A DNA stretch of 63,972 bases, counting the filler, from Globobulimina sp. (Eukaryota): assembly GCA_003354225.1 (NCBI GenBank). It is 24 parts of 24 records of this genome, joined end to end, with 100 filler letters (N's around TTAATTAATTAA, not from the genome) between each part and the next. Parts side by side here need not be neighbours in the genome. Positions count along the whole stretch, not along the records: positions 58,740 to 61,306 come from PIVH01005944.1; 23 more parts are not named here. One strand, 5' to 3'. Shown one piece after another: positions 16,265 to 61,851 of this stretch. The notes under the pieces were generated by a model. That model searched no databases and had not been told where the DNA came from. It worked only from the letters and a program-made list of their open reading frames with translations. Position 1 is the stretch's first letter. Each line of letters begins with the position of its first letter. The position numbers and the translations under genes were made by a program.

Positions 16265-18430
16265 ATGAGCTTCGTCTCAGCATTTGAAAGCAGGCTGAAT
16301 CTAAATGCGGTCCAAGGATTAGTTAAGTTGGGCCATTACGAGAAGGAAGGTTTATCATTAGCGTTAGGAACTACATCATGGAATATTGTGATTATTTCTC
16401 CTCATTCAGCAATTCAAGAATCCGCATCTGGATCATCACTAAAAAAAAGATTAGCAATTAACCGTGATATTACCGCAATTGAAACAGCTAATTTTGATGA
16501 AAATATTGATATTTTATTAATTGGCACTACAACTAATTTGTTGGCATATAATGTTGAAACAAATTCGGATATATTTTACAAAGACATACCAGATGGAGTG
16601 AATTCAATTTTATTTTGTTCGGAATTGTCGCATTTTTCAAATGGTATAAAACAACCAATAGTTATTATTGGCGGTAATTGTTCAATTCAGGCATTTGATG
16701 GAATGGGAGAAGAAGTGTTTTGGACAGTTACTTCTGACAACGTTGTTTGTATGGTTTTGTGTGATATTGATAATGATGGAATAAATGAATTATTAATTGG
16801 TTCGCAAGATTGTACAATTAAGGCATTCAAAGGAGAACAAGTTATTTATTCAATAACAGAATCCGATGTAGTTACACATTTACAAAGTTTAGGCAATGAC
16901 TGTTATTCATATGCTTTAAAAAATGGAACCGTTGGAGTTTATGTTGGAAATACTAAATTATGGAAAATACAAAATAAAGAAAAAATAACTACGATGAATG
17001 CATATAATATTATTAGTGATAATGCACAAGAAACGATAAATTGTTTAATGGTTGGTTGGAGTAACGGTTTGATTGAAGCTCGAAAAATTGAAAACGGAAA
17101 AGTAATTTGGCGCAATTTAGTGATTGACGATAGATATTCAGACGAGAGCGTTGCTGGAATTGTTTGTGGTAATTTGCGCGGAAATGATAGAAGCAGAAAT
17201 TCCCAAATTATTACTGTATCAACGAAAGGTGTTTTAACTGCATGGATTCCAAAATTAAAATCAATTGATAATGAGAACGATTTTGAGAATAAAGAAGATA
17301 TAGAAACATTTATTATGGAAAGAGATGAGTTGCGCGACGAATTGAAATATTTACGATCAAATTTTAAAACCTTGTCTTCAGGAAATATGAATGATCCATC
17401 TCTTATTCCATCCAATACGGAAATATCATGTACTTTAACCCCATCCATTGAGAAAAAAAGATTATTATTAATTATGAATACAAATAATTGCACAGTAATT
17501 AAATCCGCAGTAATTTATGGCGATAAAGTATTTACGAATGGTTGTTTTATGTTAGTTCCATCAGAACCCAAATCATCAATAATTTTGCCATTAAAATTTG
17601 AAAAAGATTTGCAATGTAATTTATCAATCAAAGCCATTGTTGGTCATTTATCATCATCGCAAAACCATGTATTTGAACTTTCGCATCGAATTCCTCGCTT
17701 TGCATCTTATTTATATGTGGCAACGGCGTCAATTCCGAAAGGAAATCAAGCAATATCGTATACAACATTTGTTTGTTCGGAAAGAATAAACCGATTAATA
17801 TTGTGGCTGAATCAAGCATTTTTATTAGAATATGAACAAAATACCAAAAAAACAATTGATATCTCATTTGTGTCATTGCGAAATGGTGAATATATAACTT
17901 TGCAATGTGATCATAATCAAAATATTAAATTAATTACAGACAATATAAATTTGTGTGGCAATATAATACAAGATATTGCCCAATATTTAAGCATTACAGA
18001 ATTACAATCGGTATGTTATTTTAATGAACATTTTAAAGAGTTAAAAAATACCATGGTCAAAGTTGGGGAATATAATGATATTCGAAACAAATTAAGTGTT
18101 GATATTGCATCAAATACAGCAATTATTAAAAATTTAATTGTTAAATCACAAGATTCGAGAATTCAAAAAAATTATTCTTTATTTAAAAAACAATTTTCCC
18201 ATTTATTTGATATTAATAATGAAATGTGTTCAGAATTTATTAAGAGACAAAATAATCATAAAAATTTGATAAATTCATTAAAATTAATTAACAAAACAAT
18301 TGAACAAATCTCAAGATTGAGAGTTGGAAAATATCAAAAAATGACGGTTAGTTTAGCAAGACAAGCGGTCAAAACTAAGAATATTGATTCTTTAATAAAT
18401 GTGTTGCATTCTGTGTCATCTCAAGATTAA
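16265..18430 (+). CDS. BBS2: Bardet-Biedl syndrome 2 BBSome subunit
   Basis: LLAYNVETNSDIFYKDIPDGVN, IIGGNCSIQAFD..GEEVFWTVT.DNV, DIDNDGINELLIGSQD, HVFEL..RIPRF, ERINR...WLNQAF, RLRVGK; 721 aa. Confidence 0.95.
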   Translation: MSFVSAFESRLNLNAVQGLVKLGHYEKEGLSLALGTTSWNIVIISPHSAIQESASGSSLKKRLAINRDITAIETANFDENIDILLIGTTTNLLAYNVETNSDIFYKDIPDGVNSILFCSELSHFSNGIKQPIVIIGGNCSIQAFDGMGEEVFWTVTSDNVVCMVLCDIDNDGINELLIGSQDCTIKAFKGEQVIYSITESDVVTHLQSLGNDCYSYALKNGTVGVYVGNTKLWKIQNKEKITTMNAYNIISDNAQETINCLMVGWSNGLIEARKIENGKVIWRNLVIDDRYSDESVAGIVCGNLRGNDRSRNSQIITVSTKGVLTAWIPKLKSIDNENDFENKEDIETFIMERDELRDELKYLRSNFKTLSSGNMNDPSLIPSNTEISCTLTPSIEKKRLLLIMNTNNCTVIKSAVIYGDKVFTNGCFMLVPSEPKSSIILPLKFEKDLQCNLSIKAIVGHLSSSQNHVFELSHRIPRFASYLYVATASIPKGNQAISYTTFVCSERINRLILWLNQAFLLEYEQNTKKTIDISFVSLRNGEYITLQCDHNQNIKLITDNINLCGNIIQDIAQYLSITELQSVCYFNEHFKELKNTMVKVGEYNDIRNKLSVDIASNTAIIKNLIVKSQDSRIQKNYSLFKKQFSHLFDINNEMCSEFIKRQNNHKNLINSLKLINKTIEQISRLRVGKYQKMTVSLARQAVKTKNIDSLINVLHSVSSQD

Positions 18431-21572: not shown

Positions 21573-23923
21573 TTATCTTTTTGATCGATACAACAATTCC
21601 AAAGCAAGCCATGCAACAAAAAAATAAGTAACACACCAAACAATTAACATCATCCAATCGTAACCAACGTCATCTATATTCATACCAAAAAATCCCAAAA
21701 AAAATTCACCAGAAATCCTCACATCAGTTTTTTCCGAATCAAATGAGATGTCAGTCCCTCCGATGCTAACTGTTGCAGAGTCGATTCTGAATGAAAGTCC
21801 TTGAAACTCATTGACCATTAATATCTCAAATGCAAAATTATAAAAAGACAGTTCTTTCGGCCATTGAATCCAGGCAGGAATCTTAGATTCGTCTTGAATA
21901 AAAACGCCGCCATATAACATAAATAACATATTTAGAAAAATGGCCACGAAGCCAGCAATATACGCATCCGGCATCAATGAAGAAATGGTAAATACACACA
22001 ATGAGCTCACAACAGACAATATGATAACCACTGACATAAAATCTCCAAATGTCTGCTGTTGTAATCCTAACATATCAAATAAAATATAACCAAACAACAC
22101 CGACGGTACAATCCGCAATAAACACAAATCCGGGATGCTCCGAGCAAATAAAAAAGGCGTAGCACCGTACAATTTGCCATTCCTATCATCAATAAAAACG
22201 TCACGTATTTCATGAAAGGTTCCACTGGCTGCAATCGCTTGGATTCCAATGAAAATACAAATAAACCCAAATGCACCAAATCTATTTTGAATGTCATCCT
22301 GTTTCTCGCTCATTTTCCCGTAAATGCTGCCTAATACAAAAGCCGCGGCCACACTGATTATTACATTAAATACAAATATCCACCATTTACGATAATAATA
22401 TCGCAATGTCCGCATTGATAAACCAATAAATGCCCAAAATGCGTGTATATAAGTCTCACATTGCACAAATGACTGACAATAATCTCCCACATCACAGCCA
22501 AATATGTTATTTATATCAAATGTACAGATTTTCTTCTCCAAATTCAAATTGTCTGCTAAAGAATCGATTATTTTATTGTCGAATGAGGTATATTTATTGT
22601 CTCTATATTTTAACCAATGCTCATATAATTTAGGTGTTGTTGATAAAAATTCAGTTTCTAATAAATAATCCGCTGCATTTCCTGTATTATGTCCGTCAGA
22701 TATAATGTCTGTGATTAATAACCGTAATAAATTATTATTTATGTGGTACCGGTTCTCATCATCGATAATATTCACATTGTAGATATTATTCAAATTTTGA
22801 ATTACTACCATATCAAAATATTCATCAATTACTGGTGTATACGTGTCATCATTCTTAGTTTCGTGATCCTCGCCATTTGATTCTGTTCTTATTCTAACAA
22901 CGTCCTTTCCTTTCAAATATTTATTATTCGCGATCGCGTTCTGTGCGTCGATGGGTTGCGTTAACGTTAATTTTGATACTATTTCGTTTAAAAATATATC
23001 ACGGCATTTAAATGCGTCCGGTAACGATCCCTTGTTTGCAAATATAATAAACAGTATATTATTTGTGCGAGGATAATATTATTACTACATACCATGTAAA
23101 GCAACAATCCATCCTTCAGTGATAATATCCACTCCATGCAGTCACAAATGCGTTTATGTGGCTGATGTATAGACATAATAACCGTGCAATTGTGTGTTTT
23201 GACAATACGTCGCAACGTTTGTACAATACTCAAAGCATTTGGTGTATCCAGGCCAGAGGTTGGCTCATCGAGCACTAAAATGTCCGGCTGGGTCATTAAT
23301 TGCATGGCTATGGAGACACGTTTCAATTCACCGCCAGATAAATATCGAATCTGTCGGTCACGAACACCGCTTAAATTTAATGTTGATAATACTTTGCTGA
23401 TTCTGTCAGAAATGACATTGAAACGTGATTTATTTGATGTGGTGCCATCGGGATTCAGTGAATTGTAGGTCACAGAAGAGGAGAATCGTAATATTTCGTA
23501 TACTTTTTCTGTTTCTGAGATATGTGGGATCTGAGAAACAAATGCAATTTTTTTACTCGAAACAGCAACACTTCCAGTTTTTGTGCCGGACTTTGGAATC
23601 CCAGCTAATAAGCCTAAGAGTGTCGTCTTTCCGGCACCACTTTGCCCAATGATTCCACATAAACAATTTACCGGTATATATCCGGAAGCATCTCGAATTA
23701 TCTCTACTTTTTTACATGGTGCATCTCGAAGGAATGGTGAAAATTTGGTAAATTTTGTGATTGAATAAGTAAGATTTTGAAAAACGACGGCATGCTCATC
23801 TTTCTCCTTATATTGCACAACGCCTATTGTCGACATGTGCCTATTTACAGTTATGGATTCATTCTGCAAATTTTGATCTGTTTCAGTTGGTTCTTCGCGT
23901 GTTTCCAGTTCAATTTCAGTCAT
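21573..23923 (-). CDS. ABCG: ABCG-family half transporter; intron about 23031-23092
   Basis: Walker A GQSGAGKT, signature LSGGELKRVSIA, LDEPTSGLD, SIHQP and a C-terminal ABC2 membrane domain (AFEILMVNEF). Confidence 0.93.
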
Positions 23924-29380: not shown

Positions 29381-31136
29381 CCAATCCGCCAATTATGCAA
29401 TTTCCATTAGGCGTAACTCATGCAATCACACTGCAAACCTCTGATGCCGATGGCGATGTAGTAAAATGTAGAAAATCAACAGACGCTCTCTCTCGTATAA
29501 CTGGACTGGATTCTACCAATCATTTTAGTTACGTTTTTTTTTATACAATGCTGTATGTATCATTTTGACTTTTTTTCTTTTCGTGTGGTGTTAATTAGGT
29601 ATTTCAGAGCAATGCGTATTAACCGGTAATTTACCATCAATTGGCACTACCTGGAATTTTAAGACCGTGGTTCAAGGCAGCAAATGGGCCACACAGTATT
29701 TTGTATTTACGGAAGATGCGTCCGGTAATGAAATGGATCGAACTGCCGTTGATTTTATAATGGAGGGTATTGACGGTTTGCCGCCAGTTTGCGCCTTGTT
29801 AACAGCGGGACCCTTCGAAGTGGAGGTTGGCGGCGCAGTGTCCATTGCTTTTGGAGTAAGTTCGCCCGATGTGATGGCATCGTCGTTGAATATTAATGTG
29901 ATCAGCATTCCAAGCACCAGCAGCGAGGTAATGCCATCTTTAATACCTGGGCATGGAACATCTGTTGACATCTCGTCTGGATCGGGAATAATTTCCTATG
30001 CCGTAGCGATCAGTGGCAGTGCATCGGCGTTAATTGGCTCGGACGTTGGCGTTTCTTTTGAAATAATCGATCCAAACACCGGCTTTACAACAGCCTGTGC
30101 TGCCGCAGTAACCGTAGTTTTTTCAGATGCAGACGGTGATGGCATAGCGGATGGCAGTGATAACTGCCCAGGCACAGCAAATGCGGACCAATTAGATACG
30201 GATATGGACGGTGCAGGCGATGCGTGCGATGTTTGTCCTTTGGATAACCCAAATGACTCGGATGGTGATTTTGTGTGCGATTCCGACGATAACTGTCCAG
30301 GCACAGCAAATCCAGACCAATTGGACACAGATATGGACGGTGTGGGCGATGCGTGTGATATTTGCCCATTGGATAACCCAAATGACTCGGATGGTGACGG
30401 TGTGTGCGATTCAGACGATAACTGTCCATTGGATGCAAATGCGGACCAATTGGACACAGATATGGATGGTTTCGGCGATGCGTGTGATATTTGTCCGTAC
30501 GACGCGCTCAACGATATTGATAATGACGGCGTCTGTGGCGATGTGGATAACTGTCCATTGCATGCAAATGCCGGTCAGTGTGATTTTGACGAGGATGGCT
30601 ATGGCGATGCTTGTGATTCGTGTGTTTTTGCCGGAGCCAACGACCCGGATCGGGATAATGACGGAGTTCCAGACGCATGCGATATGTGTCCCGGATTTGA
30701 CGATAGTTTGGATGCGGACGGAGATGGTATACCCGATGCTTGTGATATTTGCCCAGGCTTTGATGGTCCAGAGAGTGGCGATAATTATGCAGATGCGGAT
30801 AATGACGGAGTGCCTGACTGTATCGATAATTGTGTGAATGTGGCGAATGCAGATCAAGCAGATATTGATGGAGATGGCAAAGGCGATGCATGTGACCATG
30901 ACCAAGCGTGTTGTGTCGATGACTGTGGTGTTGTGGCGGATGGCTATTACCAATCATGCAACGGCTGTCATGTTTATGTAACGTGTTCGAATGGCATTTT
31001 ATATGATAATCGGCCGTGCCCTGTTTCTTGGGATGGCATTCCACAGTTATTTTGGGATGATACTATCAAAGGATGTGTTTATGAATCGGCCACATGTGAT
31101 TGTACCGGAGTTGTTCAATCAATGCCTTGTCACTAA
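29381..31136 (+). CDS. Thrombospondin type-3 (Ca-binding) repeat protein with C-terminal chitin-binding type-2 (CBM14-like) domain; 5'-truncated; probable intron about 29495-29598
   Basis: Many DxDxDGxGDACD and DNCP..AN.DQ repeats. C-terminal C..VADGYYQSCNGCHVYVTCSNG...RPCP...LFWDDTIKGCVYESATC. Confidence 0.85.
30159..30545 (+). repeat. 129-bp (43-aa) coding tandem repeat, about 3 copies
   Basis: gataactg(c/t)cca recurs at 30159, 30288 and 30417. Confidence 0.85.
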
Positions 31137-32398: not shown

Positions 32399-34620
32399 TT
32401 ACTTTAAGTTATTTAACAAGTCATGGATTCTCTGTTTAATTTTGTCATCGTCACAATTCGCTTTAATCGTTTGTAGCGCATCAAAATCCTTATCATCCAC
32501 GGCAACATCGACTGCATCGTTCCAGAATTTTAATTGGCACAGCCACTCTAACTTCTCATCAATATCCGATAATTTCAAAATATATTTCTTCGCATAGGCA
32601 GTCTTATCAATCTCTAGAAAAGCTTCAATAATCGGCAAATATCCAACCGGTGGCGGTCTCCGTACAGTGGTATTCTTATCAATATATCTCGACAACTTCT
32701 CCCATTGTTTACATTCCATATAAGATTTAATCAAAACAAACCACCATCGTCTATCCGAAATAAACAATTCTTTTTTGATTTTTTCCGCAAATCCCTCCTC
32801 CCCCAACTCCAACATGACAGATATCGTATCATTGACAGACAATCCTAATGTGGCTATGGCGCTATCCCCGCCACCGCCGCTTATCAGCATTTTCTTATCA
32901 AATTCCTTTTGAAATATAATCATTCTTTTCAAATCAGAGCACATTTGCACATTAAACTTATTCCGCACTTTCTCATAATTCTTAGTCGCACTCTCCAAAT
33001 AAGTAAAACATTTATTTGTGTCATCATTGTGATCCTCGCCAGAGCCCATATCGCCTAATCCAATGTTTCCATTCTTCAGCAACAATATACATTTTTTGAG
33101 ATTAATCCGCGACAATAAATGCATATTCTCCTGCTGATAGGGTATAAATTCATCCTTTGTGTTCGTCAAAAACTTATGTAACAATTGTTTGTAATGTTGA
33201 TTGCTTTCGTCTTCATTCTGCAACAAATCAATATAAGTTTGCAGCAATATATTATTCAACACCGCATTAAACGGCGAGTCTCCACTCTGGTTATTAATTT
33301 TATTATTTTCATATATGATTTCAAATAACTTATACCACGTTTTATTATCATTATATTTACTGATCAACTCAATCAATGTCTGATTAATCAAATTAATGTT
33401 CAACGAAACAATCGATTTCTTCAAAGCAACGATGTATTGTTCAAACTCAATCAGCGAATTAATTTGGATCTTGCTCCGTGGCTCATAGTCCAATAACAAC
33501 TTCGCCAAATCCACCGATCGTTTCTGTGCACAACGCGCTATTTTCGCGTAACTGAAATCATTGCTGAACTGCAATATTTTCTTGCGAATAATATCCACCA
33601 ACACGTGGTCAGTTATGTGTCTTTGGCTGCTTTCAATCTTACAAATGCACCAATGTTCCAACGCAGCATTCACACAAAATGATAAATTCAAATATTTACT
33701 GATCTTAATTGCTAATAAATGCTTCTTCCGATTGATCAATCGTTGCACCACAATCTGTGGCGTCAGAATTTCGAACTGCGTGTAGGTCAAAGGCATACCG
33801 ATATTAATATTGCGGATCGAATTCAACACTCTCAAAAACCGGCAAGTTTCCACAAACCGATCGCAATCAAATAACTCCTGATTGGGTATGAATAACTTTC
33901 CATACTTACAGGCACGTAATAACTTTATTTGATACTCTATAATCTCCAGCTCATACTTTGCTGCATCCAAACAATCCACCACTGCATCTTCCATGTTGTC
34001 CACCGATATCTGTCTCCTATGGCTGTCCGCTCGCGCATCGCCAATATCAAAGTCCTCAAAACTGTCATATAACAACGACGCCGGTTCACGCGAACCATAA
34101 CTAAATATATCCTGTGTACAAAAGGGCACAATGCTCAATACCTCGCAGGTTGTATTCGTTATAATGCGTATACTGTCGATCTCTGGTATTAATATGATGC
34201 GATTCGAGGCTGTCGCAGTAGAACTGGGGTATGGATACGGTATAAATTCATTACTCGAAGCCACAATGATCTGATCATTGTTGAATAATAACACCACTGC
34301 ATCGCTACCACACCACTCCATGGCCAACGGCTGTTTTTTAGCTTTCACGCTGAAATTACTGGCTTGTTTCTGGAAGTTACGCGTCGCCACAATTAAATTC
34401 ATATTCTCATCGAAGATGGCAATCATACGGCCATTGGCCGACACACACATTCGCATAATAGCTCCGCCCCGATGCTGTAATAAGTTGGTGATGTTACTGC
34501 GAGAGATACAATATATGCCACCATCGCCCGTCGATATTAATACTTGAATGTCGTTGTCGTCATCATTCGATTTGCTGTCATCATTTTTGTTGATATTTTT
34601 GTTGATTTCTGGGTTGATTA
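32399..34620 (-). CDS. VPS16: Vacuolar protein sorting 16 (HOPS/CORVET), 5'-truncated
   Basis: MEWCGSDAV, PEIDSIRI, IFSYGSREPASLL, LRVLNSIR..IGMPLTYTQF, RLINRKKHLLA, HWCICKI, LLDYEP, LSVNDT, SDRRWW, PPVGYLP. Confidence 0.93.
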
Positions 34621-34937: not shown

Positions 34938-37290
34938 ATGAGCAAATGGTTAAGCAGGTTATCCAAAGGAGGAGGTAATCCCTCAAAATCATCCAAATCC
35001 TCAAAACATACAAAAAAGCGACGCAAAGACTACGACGGTGATAATATCAACGACATGAAACGCGGCGGATCTGTAATGGACGAAGACAGCGATAATGAGG
35101 AGGAATACTACCACGACAATCATAACAACGCAGCATACAATGGCTATAATAACAACAACAACCACACCAACAACAACAACGCCACACATCAATATACAAA
35201 CAATGGAGACAATAAATACATGCCGCAACACATGACCGCCTCTCGCGCATTAACCAAATCCGGCAATAAATTGTACGTCGGCGACAAGATCTTATTAGCC
35301 AATAAACGCAGCGGTAAGGTCACGAGTTTAGGCCCCAAGCCCGACAAAGAAGGCATATGGGTACGCGTGGTCATGGACGCTCCGCAGGAATATTACTCCA
35401 AAGACAATCGCTCCTCGAAAAACAAGACCATTTGGGTGCCCATCCAACGCGTCGACAAGATACTGACCCAAGGCAACAAATTCGACCTCACCATCGATGA
35501 CCGCGTGACTGGGCGCAAAAAGGGCATCTCTGGCACTATAAAGTACGTCGGACCCACCCATTTCGAGAAGGGAGTGTGGTTTGGCGTGGCTCTCGACACT
35601 GCCAAGGGCAAAAATAACGGCACCGTCAAGAAGAAGTTCTACTTTCTATCTGAGCCAAACCATGGCGTAATGTTACCGTATAAACGATTAGGTATATTTC
35701 TGCTATTTATTTATTTTTACGCAATTTCGCAGATAGGTACTTATATATATTGCATTCTGTGAAAAGAGCACGAGAATCGCTCCAAGAAAGCCATCAAGAA
35801 AAGAAACGTCCGCTCGCGGTCCAACAATTTCGATAAGAATCGAGAGCGCGAAAAGAATGGCATGGCTCGCAACCATAGCTCGCACCAAAAAACACAAAGT
35901 GACGGCATTGGCATTGTCAACAAAGGCTATTTGACTCAGCAGTTGCAATTAGAGCAACATATTCTTGATCGAGAGCAACAGCAACAGCAACAACAGCAGA
36001 TTCTGGAAGAGATGAACCATCATCACACCAAACAATCGAACTCGAACTCGAATTCCAATTCAAATTCGCATTCAAATGACTATGCAGAGTATATCGAAGA
36101 CGACATCGACCACAACGACGAGAACAACCTGAATGGCACCAATAATAACAACAAGACGCCTTCGTCCGACAGCGAGGAGAGAATGTTTATGACTCCGTCC
36201 ACCTCTCCAAAGAAGAAAAAAGAAACTGTTGCGGTGAAGTTGACGCCGAAGGAGAAGACGCCGTTCGTGGGATGGATGAAATTGGTGTCCGGCGAGTTGG
36301 TGACGTCGGAGGACATGAAGCAGGAATCCATGGAAGTGACGCCTTCGCCGCAACCGCAGGCCTACAACTTGGAGGAGGACGAGCAGACCGTACTGATCTT
36401 GACGCAGTTCCTGGCCGAATTGCGCAAGTTTAGCGGCATCGAGAAGGAGTTGTTTGAGTCGAATTTGCCGTCGATTACCGAGGTGAACAAGGAGCAGCGA
36501 GAGAGCATCTTCATCGATAAGCTGTATCTATGCCAATGCAAATGCGACTTCTTCGATACCTCTGACGGTCAGATCGAGTTAATCGAGAAAAAGGAGAGAA
36601 TGCTATTAGAACTGTCCGAGTTCATAGCGCGCCACGTCTGGTTCAAAGAGTCTTTGTATGAGAAGTGTTTGGTGACAGTGTCTTGCAACTTATTTCGCGC
36701 CCTGCCATATCAGGATCGGCCGCCTGCTTTGTCCTTCTTCAACGACGAAGTGTTCGACAAAGACACCAACTTCGAGGACCCGGCCTGGAGGCACCTTAAA
36801 TTGGTGTACGATTTGACGTGGCGAGTGATCAATACACCGCAAGTGACGGCGGCCATGATGGAGAAGCATATGACGGGCAAGTTTTTGGGCAATTTGGTCG
36901 AGCTGTTTGCCTCTGAGGACCATCGCGAACGCGCCTATTTGATGATGATATTGCATAAAATCTACGGCCGCTGTCTCAAGTTACGGCCCTATATTATTGA
37001 GATTATGTCGTCGTACTTCTATCGTATGATATATTACGATGAATTCAAACACGTTAATGGTATTATTGAGTTATTGCAGATTATATGTGCTATTATACCC
37101 GGATTGACTGTGCCGGTCAAGGATTCCTGGCAATGTTTTGTACGCAATATATTGGTGCCGCTGCATAAGGTATGTCTTATTTGTGCGAATTTGCGTATAA
37201 TGATAGTGGATTTTGGACTTTTCAGTGTCGCGGACTTAAGAAGTTCTGGGAGCAGTTGACGCAATGTTGCGTCAATTATGTGGCCAAAGA
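34938..37290 (+). CDS. CAP-Gly domain(s) + PP2A B56 (B') regulatory subunit fusion; introns 35692-35766 and 37170-37225; 3'-truncated
   Basis: CAP-Gly: GTIKYVGPTHFEKGVWFGVALDTAKGKNNGTV. B56: FIDKL..C...CDF, NLFRALP, EDPAWRHLKLVY, LFASEDHRERAYL...LHKIYG, HVNGIIELL, ILVPLHK. The phase-1 intron joins the two ORFs in frame. Confidence 0.85.
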
Positions 37291-56306: not shown

Positions 56307-58466
56307 ATGGATAATACTGAAAAACCTAAGAAAAGCAATAAAATTCAAAAAGGTTATCAATCAAATAATAATCACAATAAAAATAAAAAAGATAACAGCA
56401 ATCATAACAATACACATAGCATAGAAACAAATAATAAAAATAAAAACTTATCAACTAATCCCCCAAATCCCTTACAAGTAATATTAGCTGATACCCCTTA
56501 TTATAATATACATCTTAAAAATTTCCTAGATTTATTAAATAAAGAAGATATTCTAAATATTTCCAAGAAAAATTGGAAAATAAGTTTCGGTAAAGCGATT
56601 TTAAAATCATCAGTCCAAACCAAACCAGATTTATATTTTAATAAATGCGAATTATTAATAATGATTTATTTCGCCCAAATCAATAACAATTTTATTTGGT
56701 TTACAAATACATCTTCACGTTCGATTTTAGATTCGCTCAAATTATTTTTAAGAAATTGTTTTATGAGAGCCGATGTAGACTCACCTGCAAAAGTCCGTAA
56801 TCTCTCGGATTTAATATATTTATCATGCTCAGAATTTAAATCTGATAAATTCAATGAATTCAAAGATTCCCCTCAATTCTCCGGATATTCCGTTTTACGT
56901 CAATTTAATTGTATACTTTATTTAGATTCTTTGTCGTCAAAATCCATCAAAGGAAATACGTCTAGTTTACAAGATGAAGCTGCCACGGTAAATAATGAAT
57001 GTTTAGCGTTATACAAAGGTTTACAAACCTCACTACCTTCGCAGCTCTCATCCACTTTAAGTCCGACGCCAATCAATCAAAACCATAACAAAGCTGAAAT
57101 TGAGGATAACTCACAACATAATAATAGTAAACATGTACATTTTAATGATAATAATTTCTCAATGAATTTACCTCCTCAAATTGGCCAAAATGTACAAAAA
57201 TTAAATCATCCAAATCAAAACCTTCAAGCGTCAATTGACAAAGTATTAAATGATACAAATCCGAATAAAAATAACATTTTACAAAATACACAGACGCATA
57301 TTCCAAGTTTTCCGGCCATTGTTACAAATTTAGACAACTTATTTTCTTTGGATGAAGCTGCAAATTCAATCACTGATTTATTAAATAATATTGATCCTTA
57401 TCAACAACTTGTAAATGATAATGATGATAATTTCAATAATTTCATGGCTTCACTAAAAGCCGAGTCAAATAAAATGGATACTGTTCAAAATTATAATTCG
57501 CAGTTTAATATTGGCTCAGTTTTATCGTCAATTATTGCCAATGTTATTTTATTCAAATTTAATATCAATAATCCGCCCAAAAAACATGGCACAATAAAAG
57601 CGTTCATAAAATATATTGGCAATTTAGATGAATCAAATTTTAATCGCTTATATCCCAAAATGCAAAATTCTGTCAATAAAAATTTATTTCAAACCGGTAT
57701 AATAGATAAAAATGGCAATATTGTGAATTTAAGTAAATATATTACAACATTAACAGACCGATTAATCCCTAATACATTAATTAAAAACAATTCTCCCCTC
57801 AAAAACGCCAACAATTTTTCCAACGCCCCTAATATTTCTGAACCTCCTCCAAAACGAAGAAGATTATCCATTTCCCCACAAACTAGAATTAATACACAAC
57901 AAAATAGCACCACTCCAATAAATACACCCCAAAATACTTCAAATTCTCGTTTAGTTCGTCGACCACAAAATACTTTGATAGCGCCACAAAATAGCTCTGT
58001 TCGTCGACATCCAGCCCTTAATTTTAATAATAATCCACAAAATAATTCGCGTCCAATTAATTTATATCATAATTCCAATAATCGTACAAATATAACACCT
58101 CAACCAATCACAGTCGAGGACTTAACCACATTAAGAAATGATATGACGCGAGAATTTCAGAAACGATTCGAAGAAAACAAACGTCTCCAAAACTCCCGTA
58201 ATTATGCAAATAAACCAAAATTTGATTATAATAATGATGATCCGAATACTGTCGAATGCCTAGAAACTGTCAATCAAAATAAAATTACTGGATTTATTGT
58301 TGACAAACAAAAAAAACATGACCCCATTGTCGTAATGGTAGACCAAGTCGTTGCAAAACAGAAAAATAAAACAATCACCGAATTAAATACCTTATTAAAT
58401 ACTAAATATACCTCATCCGGTGTACGCATCACAAATAACGATGTTTTAACTGAATTAGAAAGTTAA
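56307..58466 (+). CDS. Asn-rich hypothetical protein, 719 aa, with NLS
   Basis: Long intronless ORF, PPPKRRRL NLS, G-poor coding strand. Confidence 0.65.
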   Translation: MDNTEKPKKSNKIQKGYQSNNNHNKNKKDNSNHNNTHSIETNNKNKNLSTNPPNPLQVILADTPYYNIHLKNFLDLLNKEDILNISKKNWKISFGKAILKSSVQTKPDLYFNKCELLIMIYFAQINNNFIWFTNTSSRSILDSLKLFLRNCFMRADVDSPAKVRNLSDLIYLSCSEFKSDKFNEFKDSPQFSGYSVLRQFNCILYLDSLSSKSIKGNTSSLQDEAATVNNECLALYKGLQTSLPSQLSSTLSPTPINQNHNKAEIEDNSQHNNSKHVHFNDNNFSMNLPPQIGQNVQKLNHPNQNLQASIDKVLNDTNPNKNNILQNTQTHIPSFPAIVTNLDNLFSLDEAANSITDLLNNIDPYQQLVNDNDDNFNNFMASLKAESNKMDTVQNYNSQFNIGSVLSSIIANVILFKFNINNPPKKHGTIKAFIKYIGNLDESNFNRLYPKMQNSVNKNLFQTGIIDKNGNIVNLSKYITTLTDRLIPNTLIKNNSPLKNANNFSNAPNISEPPPKRRRLSISPQTRINTQQNSTTPINTPQNTSNSRLVRRPQNTLIAPQNSSVRRHPALNFNNNPQNNSRPINLYHNSNNRTNITPQPITVEDLTTLRNDMTREFQKRFEENKRLQNSRNYANKPKFDYNNDDPNTVECLETVNQNKITGFIVDKQKKHDPIVVMVDQVVAKQKNKTITELNTLLNTKYTSSGVRITNNDVLTELES

Positions 58467-58739
58467 TTTCATTAAAGAACGATGCCTACTTTTTATGCGA
58501 ATGGTCCGTAGCGGGAAAGCTAAGAAATTATTTGAGGAAAAAAGTTTGGACCGAGCACATATTTAAATATTTTGTGCACTTATTATACACATAAAAATGA
58601 CGTCATCACTTGGATTCGAATAATTTGGATGCGAATAGTNNNNNNNNNNNNNNNNNNNNNNNNNNNNNNNNNNNNNNNNNNNNTTAATTAATTAANNNNN
58701 NNNNNNNNNNNNNNNNNNNNNNNNNNNNNNNNNNNNNNN

Positions 58740-61274
58740 CGACTTTTTTTCGTGTTTTTTGATTTTATTAATTTTCAGAGCAACCTGTTTTGTGCTCGTA
58801 TTTGACAATTTGCGTCGGTTTATAATGCGGCATTTGCTCGTATTCCAATAATAGTTCCAGCCCATTGAGAATATTTTCACTCCGACGTCCAAGCCATTCA
58901 ATAACACCGTAATTCCAAGGATCAAATCCAACATTTCCGTGCTGTGTAAGCCGGGATAGATTCCAAACAGTGCGAATAAGATAATCTCTATGAAAATAAT
59001 CACTAATATCAATTGCGAAAAAGCTTCCGTTTCGACAATGTGTAATTGTATCCATGCTAACAATGTGTCGTCGTCCTGGATGATGTCAATCAATGTGGGT
59101 TTCTGATAGATTTCTTCCAGTTTGGTCACAAACTCTCGTATATCGATACGGTCATCGCCATCGGCATCAAAATTCTCAAACTCTAAATGCTGTTTCATTT
59201 CTTCATCAAACTTCAAAATATCTGTCGAATGTTTCAAATATTCGACAAACGACTCAAATTCGGTCTGACTGACTTCATTGTCATTATCCAAATTGATCAA
59301 AGAAAAGGCCGCCACATAGCCAGTCCGCTTGAAATATAATCTCCGCTCTCTTTCTTTATTATAAATCTGTTTAAACGACGTTTGGAATCGCGAGACAACC
59401 AAAGAAACCACAATCCAGGTTCCCAATACTGTGCATATTACGAAATAAGAGATTAAAAATGGCGATTTCTCGAAGGAGACATATACGATTTCACCATAAT
59501 TCTCCCCGCTTATTATAAATACGTAGCTGGTGAAGATCGAACGAATCGCATTTTGAAATGAATACACATTATACACATCCATTAAGTCGGTAAAGCGGAA
59601 TAAAATCACCCCGGACACGGCGGCAATGCCCAGCAACATTATAAATAATAACAGCGCGTCGGCAGCATTGATGGAGGTAATAGCCAATGCATAGCAGGCA
59701 CCAATTAATTTGTCATTGGACAAAATCAACAGAAACGGCCGTAATGGCACTAAGCGCGTAAAGGACTTGTTCGCCATTACAATGAGTATGACATCCACGA
59801 CGATCAATAACCAAATCAATCCGCGTAATGCGTATATATTCTTCTGCTGCGAGGGCGACATTAACGGATTCATTTTCGTGTTTTGCCATTTAAATTGAAT
59901 AAAACCGGTTAGAATTAAATCAAAACACTCGAAAACCAAACATAATATCTCTACATACAACGCATATTTCGGGTATCCTTTTTGTAGCGTTTCTTGCGTC
60001 AAAGGCCGCCAGAATACCAATAAAATGTGAATTGTAATTAAGATTTGCAACAGATATCGCCAGCTGCGCGACGACTGCAAACTATATAATTTTAGTCTGT
60101 ATTCCTTCGATTGTCCGTATTTCTCCATCTGTACCACGGTGATTATATTCATGCCGCGCTTCGCTTGATATATATGCCGCAATGCACGCTTATGATAATG
60201 ATCTGTAATGTCCTTACGTTTCGTAGGCAGTTCAGACTCAATATGCGTGGACGCTTGCTGTCGGATCCATGATTTCTCGCAACTTTCTCGCACGGTACCT
60301 CGGATGTTCTCAGATATAAAATCTAAAGATCGCAACAGCTCATCCTCGTCGTCAGGCTCCTCCTCATCATTGCAATTAACATTCTTACTGTGCTCTATAT
60401 GCGTTTCTGCACTCTCCTCATCCTCAGAAGCCATCGACTCTTCCTCCTCCTCCTCGTGATCACGGCTCGCCGTCACATTTCGAATGGTGTGCATAATTTG
60501 CTGCAAGTATAAATACTCCCAATTCCCGATATTCTCTTGAAACCTGCGATAAATCACAAAATGGATAAATAAGTAGATGATGACCCATCCAATGACGGAG
60601 ATTGAGCCCAATGTACTGTACACAACGTGGTCTCCCACGAAAATCGCACTGCCGATGGTGATAACCACCCTCCAGTTCAATTGCGCGTCCTTTGCATTCT
60701 CATACCAACAGTATACAATACACGGATAGCTCCACGAGGACCACGCTATCACTGCTTCGGTATTCTCGTTGTTGACGATCTGCGAGGTTTGATTGAGGTA
60801 AATGTAGCTCGATTGGACGTCGCTGTTTGTGCTCTCATTGCAGCGCATCACAGAGGTCAAGTCCTTGCCGTACGTGGTCTGCAATGTGCTGATCATATCA
60901 TTGCCGGTGACTGCTAATAAATAATCGTCGCTGTCACCTATCACCTTCGAATGGGTAAACATGTAAAAGGAGAAAGACACACTATTCGATGTATAACTTG
61001 TCACGATTTTCTCCTCTTGTTCTTCTACCACTTGTTTCATGCCACTTTCTTCCCAAATTAGTGAGTATGCCAAGTCTGCCAAGTTGTGCATAGATAATAA
61101 AGTACCAACATACATTTGCGAATTATTGCGCGATTTGGTTAACCCAACGTAACACACTTTGGCACCGCCAAAACAGGTAAATGGCACGGACCAAGCAATG
61201 ATTTTAACATCATTTACAAGTAATTGATACGTGTCATGTATTGCTTTGTATAACGTGCAATCCGTCACAGCCAT
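58740..61274 (-). CDS. Two-pore-channel-like cation channel with EF-hand linker and N-terminal Cache-like ectodomain + TM; truncated
   Basis: S4 RLVPLRPFLLI, pore FQNAIRSIFTSYVFIISGENY, S6 LVVSRFQTSF, EF-hands NLDNDNEVSQTEF and DADGDDRIDIREF, and the start of a second 6TM unit. The N-terminus has WSVPF...YVGTLLSMHNL...LNWRVVITI. Confidence 0.8.
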
Positions 61275-61851
61275 GGTTTGCTGCTCTTGGTAGCTTTAAT
61301 TGCACCNNNNNNNNNNNNNNNNNNNNNNNNNNNNNNNNNNNNNNNNNNNNTTAATTAATTAANNNNNNNNNNNNNNNNNNNNNNNNNNNNNNNNNNNNNN
61401 NNNNNNTGTTGATGTTTCCATTTGTACATGCAAAATATTGTCAGATCAGCGTGTACAAATGGAAAGATGAATAAGTAATGATCTGCCTTCTCAGATCTCG
61501 CGAAAATATGACAGAATTGTTGTAATATTTATATACAATAACTACATAATATAATATTGAAATTCTAGTGATATGAACGCATTGCTAGTATGTTCAAATA
61601 TGAATCCCAAAATAAGCTGTTTTTCACAAGTGTGTTGGGTAATCCGATGGGATTATACGTTTATGTCTTAAATAGTATGTTGACATCAAATCTGACTCTG
61701 AATAGGGACAAACTGGATCGATGCATTGGTTTTAATCCACTGTATGATTCGGTTCGAGAGTCTGTAGAAAAGGTAAGAGCTTGATCTGAGTTGGGATGAA
61801 TACTGAACACAGTTTTTTCAGCGTAAATTCGTTTTACTTGAATATATATAC

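Follow-up and report, generated by a model that had tools for sequence, protein, structure and literature searches.

Among the extracellular sensors of bacteria, none is as common as the Cache domain. Eukaryotic Cache domains are known mainly from α2δ and CACHD1, two proteins that partner Ca2+ channels but are separate from them; what their natural ligands are and how they act on the pore is debated. According to the available text of PMC8915833, a VWA insertion is present in every known eukaryotic dCache_1 protein, and Ca2+ channels have their Cache partner as a separate subunit. Two-pore channels (TPCs) such as TPC1 and TPC2 have two six-transmembrane (6TM) repeats per chain with an EF-hand pair between them, and their selectivity filters are Asn-based; in the available text of PMC11085791, the filter of repeat II reads M-G-N in plant TPC1, V-N-N in human TPC2 and a diatom TPC, and V-N-D in diatom TPCL. 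Here we describe a gene fragment from Globobulimina sp. (Eukaryota; NCBI GenBank assembly GCA_003354225.1) in which a predicted Cache-type ectodomain and a channel of two-repeat layout share one chain. The fragment lies on record PIVH01005944.1, at positions 58740..61306 of the analysed stretch of 63,972 nucleotides, which we call the window.

We consider it fairly probable that this contig comes from a foraminiferal gene encoding a large single-chain sensor-channel, in which a sensor resembling those of α2δ and of bacterial chemoreceptors would stand in cis with a Ca2+-permeable two-repeat channel. A sensor-channel fusion of this kind was not found described in the open full-text literature; the eukaryotic dCache proteins listed in the supplement of PMC8915833 might include members. 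In the available text of a paper on foraminiferal calcification, voltage-dependent Ca2+ channels are mentioned in general terms only. A preliminary description of the contig, made from its sequence alone, had read it as a Cache-like sensor domain built into a plant-type TPC; we compare this proposal with our results below.

An open reading frame linking an ectodomain to a channel

The window is composed of 24 pieces of 2566-2572 bp in order of falling length, separated by 100-bp linkers of the form N44-TTAATTAATTAA-N44 (for example 58640-58739 and 61307-61406). The gene fragment is confined to 58740..61306, one 2567-bp contig with a GC content of 0.413, and is cut at both ends. The adjoining pieces (GC 0.294 and 0.352) are unrelated contigs. 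Because the window joins unrelated contigs, the neighbouring pieces carry no genomic context for the fusion gene.

On the minus strand, a stop-free frame of 845 codons runs from an ATG at 61274 to the last contig base at 58740; the remaining open reading frames (ORFs) listed on the contig are short shadow frames within it. As judged by hydropathy and composition, this single frame holds an ectodomain, a transmembrane (TM) helix, an acidic linker, a 6TM unit, two EF-hands and the start of a second 6TM unit, in the order given in the preliminary description. Hydropathy places a TM helix at amino acids (aa) 223-241, segments S1, S2, S3, S5 and S6 of repeat I within 408-626, and two helices of repeat II at 744-799. 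Between aa 243 and 330 there are 27 Asp and Glu residues against 8 Lys and Arg. The features are as follows, with ectodomains numbered as in the whole proteins described below and the evidence in brackets.

61275..61306, minus strand: in-frame stretch upstream of the ATG, with a TAA (translation; tblastn to the relative P0005)
61092..61274, minus strand: aa 1-61, end of the distal module of the predicted dCache ectodomain 2, comprising its last helix and three last β strands, with Cys 6, 34 and 41 (mapped on a structural model)
60612..61091, minus strand: aa 62-221, connecting helices and entire membrane-proximal module of ectodomain 2 (alignment; structural model)
60549..60611, minus strand: aa 222-242, TM closing ectodomain 2, the fourth extra TM of the full protein (hydropathy; alignment; helix prediction)
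60339..60548, minus strand: aa 243-312, cytosolic, with the juxtamembrane motif and then an acidic linker of variable sequence and low complexity (composition; alignment)
60063..60338, minus strand: aa 313-404, conserved cytosolic pre-S1 region (alignment)
59385..60062, minus strand: aa 405-630, channel repeat I, S1-S6 (hydropathy; phmmer against the PDB)
59484-59519, minus strand: aa 586-597, pore loop of repeat I, F-I-I-S-G-E-N-Y-G-E-I-V (sequence; alignment)
59100..59327, minus strand: aa 650-725, EF-hand pair of the I-II linker (weak Pfam matches; sequence reading; TPC1 match in the PDB)
59259-59294 and 59133-59168, minus strand: aa 661-672 and aa 703-714, the two EF loops (read from the sequence)
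58866..59045, minus strand: aa 744-803, S1 and S2 of repeat II (hydropathy; alignment to full-length relatives)
58740..58865, minus strand: aa 804-845, first part of a long cytosolic insert between IIS2 and IIS3, cut off in frame by the contig end (alignment)

Foraminiferal relatives and the layout of the whole protein

Of 1.84 billion representatives searched by HMMER with aa 1-250, 16 matched at E≤1e-3, and relatives match the window protein at E values of 0 to 1e-192, far beyond chance. A word-indexed search returned three relatives, of which P0002 (1123 aa, 60% identity to the window protein) and P0003 (1100 aa, 61% identity) come from metagenomes, and P0004 (527 aa, 82% identity) from the Bolivina argentea transcriptome set of EukProt. 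The two best matches to aa 1-250 are both long proteins: P0005 (1609 aa, Bolivina argentea transcriptome, 56% identity), matched at 645-893, and P0006 (2886 aa, Nonionella stella transcriptome, 60% identity), matched at 1667-1924. Each covers 97% of the window protein, and the two are the full-length fusions for which a search of protist transcriptomes had been suggested; upstream they extend past the window protein by 632-644 aa in P0005 and by 1666 aa in P0006. Hypothetical proteins of Reticulomyxa filosa are distant members (27-30% identity). All named relatives are foraminiferal (Bolivina, Nonionella, Reticulomyxa), and the rest are environmental records.

P0019, a bacterial YadA-type adhesin, was taken as a spurious match (E 9.6e-5, over six short stretches). 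There were no bacterial Cache proteins among the aa 1-250 matches that were looked up (six short matches were not), and a recent bacterial origin of the ectodomain is not supported. Scans of metagenome contigs with a four-sequence alignment and with P0002 returned 234 and 32 pattern matches, respectively, none of which was confirmed as the locus of a relative. Likewise, tblastn of P0006, P0005, P0002, P0013 and P0022 against the window matched this contig only: the rest of the gene does not lie on the other 23, and for P0022, which represents ectodomain 1, no match was obtained.

As determined by hydropathy, P0006 starts with a long cytosolic N-terminus, followed by a TM, an ectodomain 1 of ~325 aa, a second TM and a cytosolic loop of ~265 aa; then come a third TM, an ectodomain 2 of ~360 aa, a fourth TM, the linker and twelve channel helices with the EF-hand pair mid-way. 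P0005 has the same order, starting at the end of the first TM. Judged from these sequences, the channel of the whole proteins is preceded by two ectodomains and four extra TM helices. In the relatives that reach upstream, this amounts to 630 to >1600 extra N-terminal residues in comparison with TPCs. The single extra TM of the preliminary description is correct for the window, which holds the closing TM only, but not for the whole proteins; TMs on both sides of the ectodomain are seen by hydropathy in P0005, P0006, P0012 and P0013. By alignment, window aa 1-221 are the last two thirds of ectodomain 2. The ~215 aa formerly taken for the sensor domain are accordingly to be corrected to ~221 aa, and to the C-terminal two thirds of one predicted dCache domain rather than the whole of it.

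The Reticulomyxa filosa proteins P0012, P0013, P0015, P0016 and P0020 show the same two TM-bracketed ectodomains and acidic tail, and their gene models end at or shortly past the closing TM; one Reticulomyxa filosa record is labelled a HECT-domain protein by its source. P0003 was considered as a sensor-less form of the channel, with neither an ectodomain nor a TM before it; this was rejected, since the P0003 model takes up almost all of its 3522-bp contig and its start may be cut off.

The ATG at 61274 is very probably not the true start of the window protein, because homology to relatives reaches residue 3 of the ORF and continues upstream to the first codon of the contig. In tblastn with P0005 the match extends to nt 61304 and spans an in-frame TAA at 61296-61298. 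Read in frame, 61275..61306 (minus strand) gives C-N-stop-S-Y-Q-E-Q-Q-T, and over these ten codons the relatives have C-[NGD]...Y...-T-D-C. The ORF is almost certainly incomplete at its 5' end, and 61275..61306 is probably ectodomain coding sequence or the end of an intron. The TAA itself may belong to a short intron, may be a contig-end error or may mark a defective copy. Gln in place of the stop would make the upstream stretch resemble the N-Q-T sequon of P0005.

Predicted dCache fold of the ectodomain

For AlphaFold2 (AF2) modelling, 14 ectodomain 2 sequences were used, with the P0005 domain and both its TMs first and window aa 1-250 as one of the rows (53% identity). The model of P0005 ectodomain 2 (pLDDT 79.5, pTM 0.73) runs from a long N-terminal helix through an α/β module, connecting helices and a second α/β module to a long C-terminal helix, and the two PAS-like α/β modules are stacked along the N-terminal stalk helix. 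When this model was compared with the PDB by Foldseek, 49 entries matched at E≤1e-3, the best of them at 2.7e-6; those listed are periplasmic sensor domains of bacterial chemoreceptors or kinases, or constructs derived from them (TlpA, Tlp1, TlpC, PctD, PctA, TlpQ and Mlp24). In VIA, the best match was TlpQ (Z 16.7, root-mean-square deviation (rmsd) 3.6 Å, 233 aligned residues). The best 50 VIA entries are all dCache-type sensors, with Z between 16.7 and 13.4 and an rmsd of ~3-4 Å over 207-292 residues, and they cover model residues 33-377 together with almost all of each target; the CHASE domain of Arabidopsis AHK4 ranks 50th (Z 13.4). An ESM-Atlas feature search with aa 1-222 pointed to dCache_1 and MCP-like_PDC_1 clusters at 0.92-0.94, which is a lead only.

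The window covers model residues 158-380 only, its aa 1 being model residue 158. All four stretches that the preliminary description had named as Cache motifs (WSVPF, YVGTLLSMHNL, FYMF...LLAVT and LNWRVVITI) fall on predicted β strands, and the Foldseek and VIA matches of the model bear out its proposal of an N-terminal Cache fold. Cys 6, 34 and 41 are kept in every aligned ectodomain 2 member, Reticulomyxa included, and the window ectodomain has N-x-S/T sequons at N50, in the distal-module part, and at N146 and N161, in aa 62-221. The conserved Cys residues and the sequons fit an extracytosolic location. Pfam CHASE had no match among the 14 ectodomain 2 members at E≤10, and no VWA or other Pfam domain was found at E≤0.01 in the N-terminal parts of P0005, P0006, P0013, P0015 and P0016. 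On the evidence of the model, ectodomain 2 is a dCache domain by fold and not by any current sequence model.

With the bacterial dCache_1 domains (TlpQ, PctD, Tlp1, TlpA, Mlp24 and PctA), ectodomain 2 shares its predicted fold over the whole domain (Z 13.4-16.7) and the succession of TM, long stalk helix, distal module, proximal module and TM. It differs from them in sequence, with 7-12% identity in the structural alignments and no similarity at the level of hidden Markov models (HMMs), and in its distal module, into which an additional Cys-rich strand is inserted. Moreover, its host is eukaryotic, and its output would be an ion channel, not a kinase, MCP or cyclase. The CHASE domain of AHK4 is likewise a eukaryotic dCache-like sensor between TMs and is among the best 50 structural matches, but it ranks below the bacterial dCache domains and its output is a histidine kinase. 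The α2δ subunits offer the parallel of a dCache-fold extracellular module associated with a pore-forming protein. However, the module of the family described here is covalently joined to the channel and TM-anchored on both sides, and, unlike α2δ and CACHD1, it has no VWA domain.

Ectodomain 1, which lies outside the window, is probably a second dCache domain, as suggested by its own model. In VIA the best 50 entries for this model are all dCache-type (Z 9.0-12.3; AHK4 CHASE, Z 9.6), and Foldseek gave 3 matches at E≤1e-3, the best at 1.7e-4.

A two-repeat channel with glutamate filters

The channel part of the window protein resembles TPCs. A phmmer search against PDB sequences gave 28 matches at E≤1, of which the top 13 are two-pore channels and the other 15 EF-hand proteins. 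Repeat I is nearest to human TPC2 (E 6.7e-7 over aa 441-661), and eleven entries of TPC1 ('Two pore calcium channel protein 1') match aa 507-813 at E values of 2.2e-3 to 7.2e-3, a region that reaches from IS4 to IIS2 (E 2e-3 at best). In the ESM-Atlas, the channel part adjoins an Endomyxa Ion_trans cluster (0.96) and plant TPC1 clusters (0.95). Pfam reported EF-hand_6 (E 8.9e-4) and an EF-hand_7 pair (E 0.04), both under the curated cut-off, and EF-hand_1 was weak too; on reading, both EF loops fit the canonical 12-residue pattern. Ion_trans was not reported by Pfam on the window protein, and it was found twice in each of P0002, P0003, P0005 and P0006. The Pfam check proposed in the preliminary description thus gave weak EF-hands in the window, and Ion_trans in the relatives but not in the window itself. 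The chain ends after repeat II in the full-length P0002, P0003 and P0006; the family accordingly has two repeats, whereas CaV channels have four.

Repeat II is of a different character. When P0002 was compared with PDB sequences, CaV3.3 was the best match (1.5e-27) and CaV1.x followed at about 1e-24; in the family, repeat II aligns with repeats of CaV3.3 and CaV1.2 at E values of 1e-27 to 1e-24, far better than with TPCs. Because repeat II is CaV-like, the best 60 of the 168 matches of P0002 consist of CaV, NaV, bacterial NaV and CatSper entries, and TPCs are absent from these 60. The reading as a plant-type TPC holds for the 6TM-EF-6TM layout, which the full-length relatives display, but their repeat II scores best against CaV. 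The family also departs from TPCs in its long IIS2-IIS3 insert, a low-complexity segment of ~100-120 aa at an unusual site inside a voltage-sensor-type domain.

The filter of repeat I reads S-G-E-N-Y at aa 589-593, as previously noted, instead of TT(A/S)NN. S-G-E-N-Y-G-E is invariant in the four-sequence alignment, and P0005 and P0006 also read S-G-E-N-Y. The Glu residue is aligned to its counterpart in the repeat I filter of CaV3.3, and in the alignment with TPC2, whose filter I is T-A-N-N, it stands opposite the Ala of T-A-N. In repeat II, T-V-G-E-G-W aligns with the CaV3.3 repeat II filter; V-G-E-G is present in three of four relatives (P0002, P0003 and P0006), and P0005 has L-G-S-G. Thus, the family carries Glu at the selectivity position of CaV1-3 in repeat I and, in these three of four relatives, in repeat II, and the Asn-based filters of TPCs (T-A/S-N in I; V-N-N or M-G-N in II) are not matched. 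Paralogues may differ in ion selectivity, given the Ser of P0005. As repeat I is nearest to TPC2, repeat II nearest to CaV and the filter Glu aligned with CaV, the channel appears from its sequence to be TPC1-like in layout, with EF-hands, and CaV-like in pore chemistry.

Between ectodomain and channel, conservation is uneven. The closing TM and the juxtamembrane R-R-F-Q-E-N-I are nearly invariant among close relatives and were modelled as one long helix. The acidic linker that follows is variable and not conserved between relatives, and the pre-S1 region (aa 313-404) is again common to all of them, including P0003.

Continuity of the fusion in public sequencing runs

The order of ectodomain, TM, acidic linker, pre-S1 region and channel is the same in the window protein, P0002, P0005 and P0006, and the fragments P0008, P0010 and P0017 span the junction. 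Two of these junction-bearing proteins, P0005 and P0006, are transcript-derived and come from different genera. The recurrence of the junction in P0002, P0005, P0006 and the three fragments agrees with the earlier suggestion that the Cache module is built directly into the channel.

Contigs of four public runs tile the stretch, in 30/30 bins in three runs and 27/30 in the fourth, and extend past both ends of 58740..61306; one of 5133 nt, for example, overlaps 60856-61306 and reaches ~4.7 kb further. Two runs that may derive from RNA have contigs with 90-99% identity and no joints. The best-matching run is possibly the window's own source and was not counted as independent. A 1475-nt contig from another study than this run covers 59284-60758 (aa 172-663) and spans the proximal Cache module, the TM and the linker through to the first EF-hand. 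In runs from two studies, the junction lies inside single contigs (59284-60758 and 59566-60758), and contigs from two studies carry the window sequence with few differences. No joints or loose ends were seen in any of the four runs compared. The preliminary description had allowed for two genes or a chimeric contig; the run contigs cross the junction without joints, and the transcript-derived P0005 and P0006 carry both parts in one protein.

The sole break common to the runs is a two-way bubble at 60759-60855, where two runs from different studies have two short alternatives with ≤6 differences. From its sequence it looks like two alleles or near-identical copies. At 58757-58772, 15 bases are absent from contigs of two other runs (90-99% identity), an in-frame loss of five IIS2-IIS3 codons; a close relative or second copy therefore exists.

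Proposed mechanism and alternative explanations

The features of the family suggest how a sensor-channel of this kind might work. By analogy with two-pore channels, two chains would form a four-repeat pore. The filter Glu of repeat I, with that of repeat II in three of four relatives, could create a CaV-like acidic ring and permit Ca2+ to pass, and the EF-hands, as in plant TPC1, may let cytosolic Ca2+ influence gating. The dCache modules would be exposed to the medium or to a vacuolar lumen, where they would bind a small molecule. Coupling may take place via the closing TM and the juxtamembrane motif packed against the channel, rather than by pulling on the linker, because the 70-residue linker is variable and the TM with R-R-F-Q-E-N-I nearly invariant; alternatively, the ectodomains might sit on the outer face of the pore, as α2δ does on animal CaV. 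Ligand gating and Ca2+ selectivity are what we infer from these features. In its most complete form, the proposal describes a new class of ionotropic chemoreceptors in Foraminifera, namely a dimeric Ca2+-selective two-repeat channel with a CaV-like Glu ring, which small molecules would directly open or tune by binding to its own bacterial-style dCache domains (two per chain, four per channel) and receive Ca2+ feedback through its EF-hands. So detailed a version is tentative, and we regard it as unlikely to be right in all its parts.

Several observations weigh against the sensor-channel interpretation. Pfam Cache families matched none of the 14 ectodomain 2 members at E≤10 and were absent from the window protein at E≤1, and a profile of the ectodomain alignment had no match among PDB sequences at E≤10. 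Because sequence methods detect none, the Cache assignment rests on the predicted structure of a relative, built from 14 sequences. The model of ectodomain 1 is weak (pLDDT 58.2, from an 8-sequence alignment), and profiles of ectodomains 1 and 2 show no similarity (hhalign probability 0.2%), because of which an internal duplication is not detectable. In the available text of PMC8915833, the amino-acid-binding motif of dCache_1AA domains is given as Y..R.W...Y...D in the distal module. By eye, this motif is not evident in our alignment, which has a conserved C-x-x-W and no conserved R-x-W, and no ligand can be proposed for the ectodomain. Simple mechanical gating is made less likely by the length and variability of the linker that joins the sensor to the channel. 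Regarding the pore, the filter of repeat II in the window protein itself lies past the contig end, and P0005 has Ser in place of the Glu. Finally, an in-frame TAA stands 8 codons 5' of the ATG in apparently homologous sequence, and the copy could be defective.

The main rival accepts the fusion as real and takes the dCache-fold ectodomains as an auxiliary or structural module, serving in trafficking, surface stability or attachment to a matrix or the test surface, and not as ligand sensors. Much of the known effect of α2δ on CaV channels is of just this trafficking or stability kind. In its favour, the alignment shows no evident ligand-binding motif of a known kind, the linker is long, acidic and variable, the ectodomain has diverged past detection by all Cache HMMs, and the conserved Cys residues and sequons point to a stable extracellular scaffold. 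On the other hand, the best 50 VIA structural matches are all ligand-binding sensor domains, the near-invariance of the closing TM and of the juxtamembrane motif is what a transmitting element would show, and two separate sensor-type modules have been kept in three genera. We judge a purely structural role possible, if somewhat unlikely.

Two further explanations concern the locus rather than the function of the family. The window copy might be a pseudogene or an error-bearing fragment of a real family, so that the locus makes no protein; the TAA at 61296-61298 within sequence that still aligns to relatives, the mere 2567 bp of the contig and the lack of a signal peptide or preceding TM in the ORF would agree with this. 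We nevertheless consider it improbable, since 845 codons are open in DNA of 41% GC with 82% identity to a transcript-derived protein of Bolivina argentea, run contigs from two studies match this sequence apart from a few differences, and the TAA is possibly intronic or the ten-codon match a product of chance. The junction might also be an artefact, two neighbouring genes having been joined in assembly or gene modelling; the small size of the contig, the assembly-graph bubble at 60759-60855 and the P0003 gene model, a channel with no ectodomain or TM before it, could be cited for this. However, the frame is stop-free between the two parts, single contigs of two studies contain the junction, and the same order recurs in two transcriptome proteins of different genera, one metagenome protein and three fragments; the start of P0003 may simply be cut off. 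A chimera of ectodomain and channel is very unlikely, because run contigs cross the junction without joints and the junction recurs in relatives, and the explanation is largely refuted; of all those discussed here we give it the least credence, and very little of that. We thus retain the single-chain sensor-channel as the preferred reading of the contig.

Other sequences in the window

Other contigs of the window encode BBS2 with all five BBS2 domains (16265-18427), Vps16 (32402-34456), a PP2A B56 subunit (35862-37256), an ABC half-transporter (21576-23923) and a thrombospondin type 3 repeat protein (29667-31133). The ABC half-transporter consists of ABC_tran and ABC2_membrane in adjacent ORFs, and a CAP-Gly protein is also found on other pieces. 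The source is an intron-poor eukaryote with ciliary genes. On the neighbouring contig, 56307-58466 (plus strand) holds a 719-aa Asn/Gln-rich ORF without a Pfam family.

Implications

The domain architecture of the family is new and plausibly brings with it a new way of controlling a channel; to date it has been seen in Foraminifera only. By placing a predicted dCache module and a CaV/TPC-type pore in one chain, it offers a system of fixed stoichiometry for the study of communication between Cache domains and pores. A two-repeat channel with the layout of TPCs and CaV-like filters also bears on the proposed route from one- to two- to four-repeat channels. If the family does comprise ionotropic chemoreceptors, they would be a natural cis version of the CaV-α2δ pair, with Cache control of a voltage-gated-type pore. 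For foraminiferal biology, these proteins are a candidate link from external or vacuolar chemistry to Ca2+ fluxes, and, should they act as such receptors, the chemistry of seawater or of seawater vacuoles would be tied to the entry of Ca2+.

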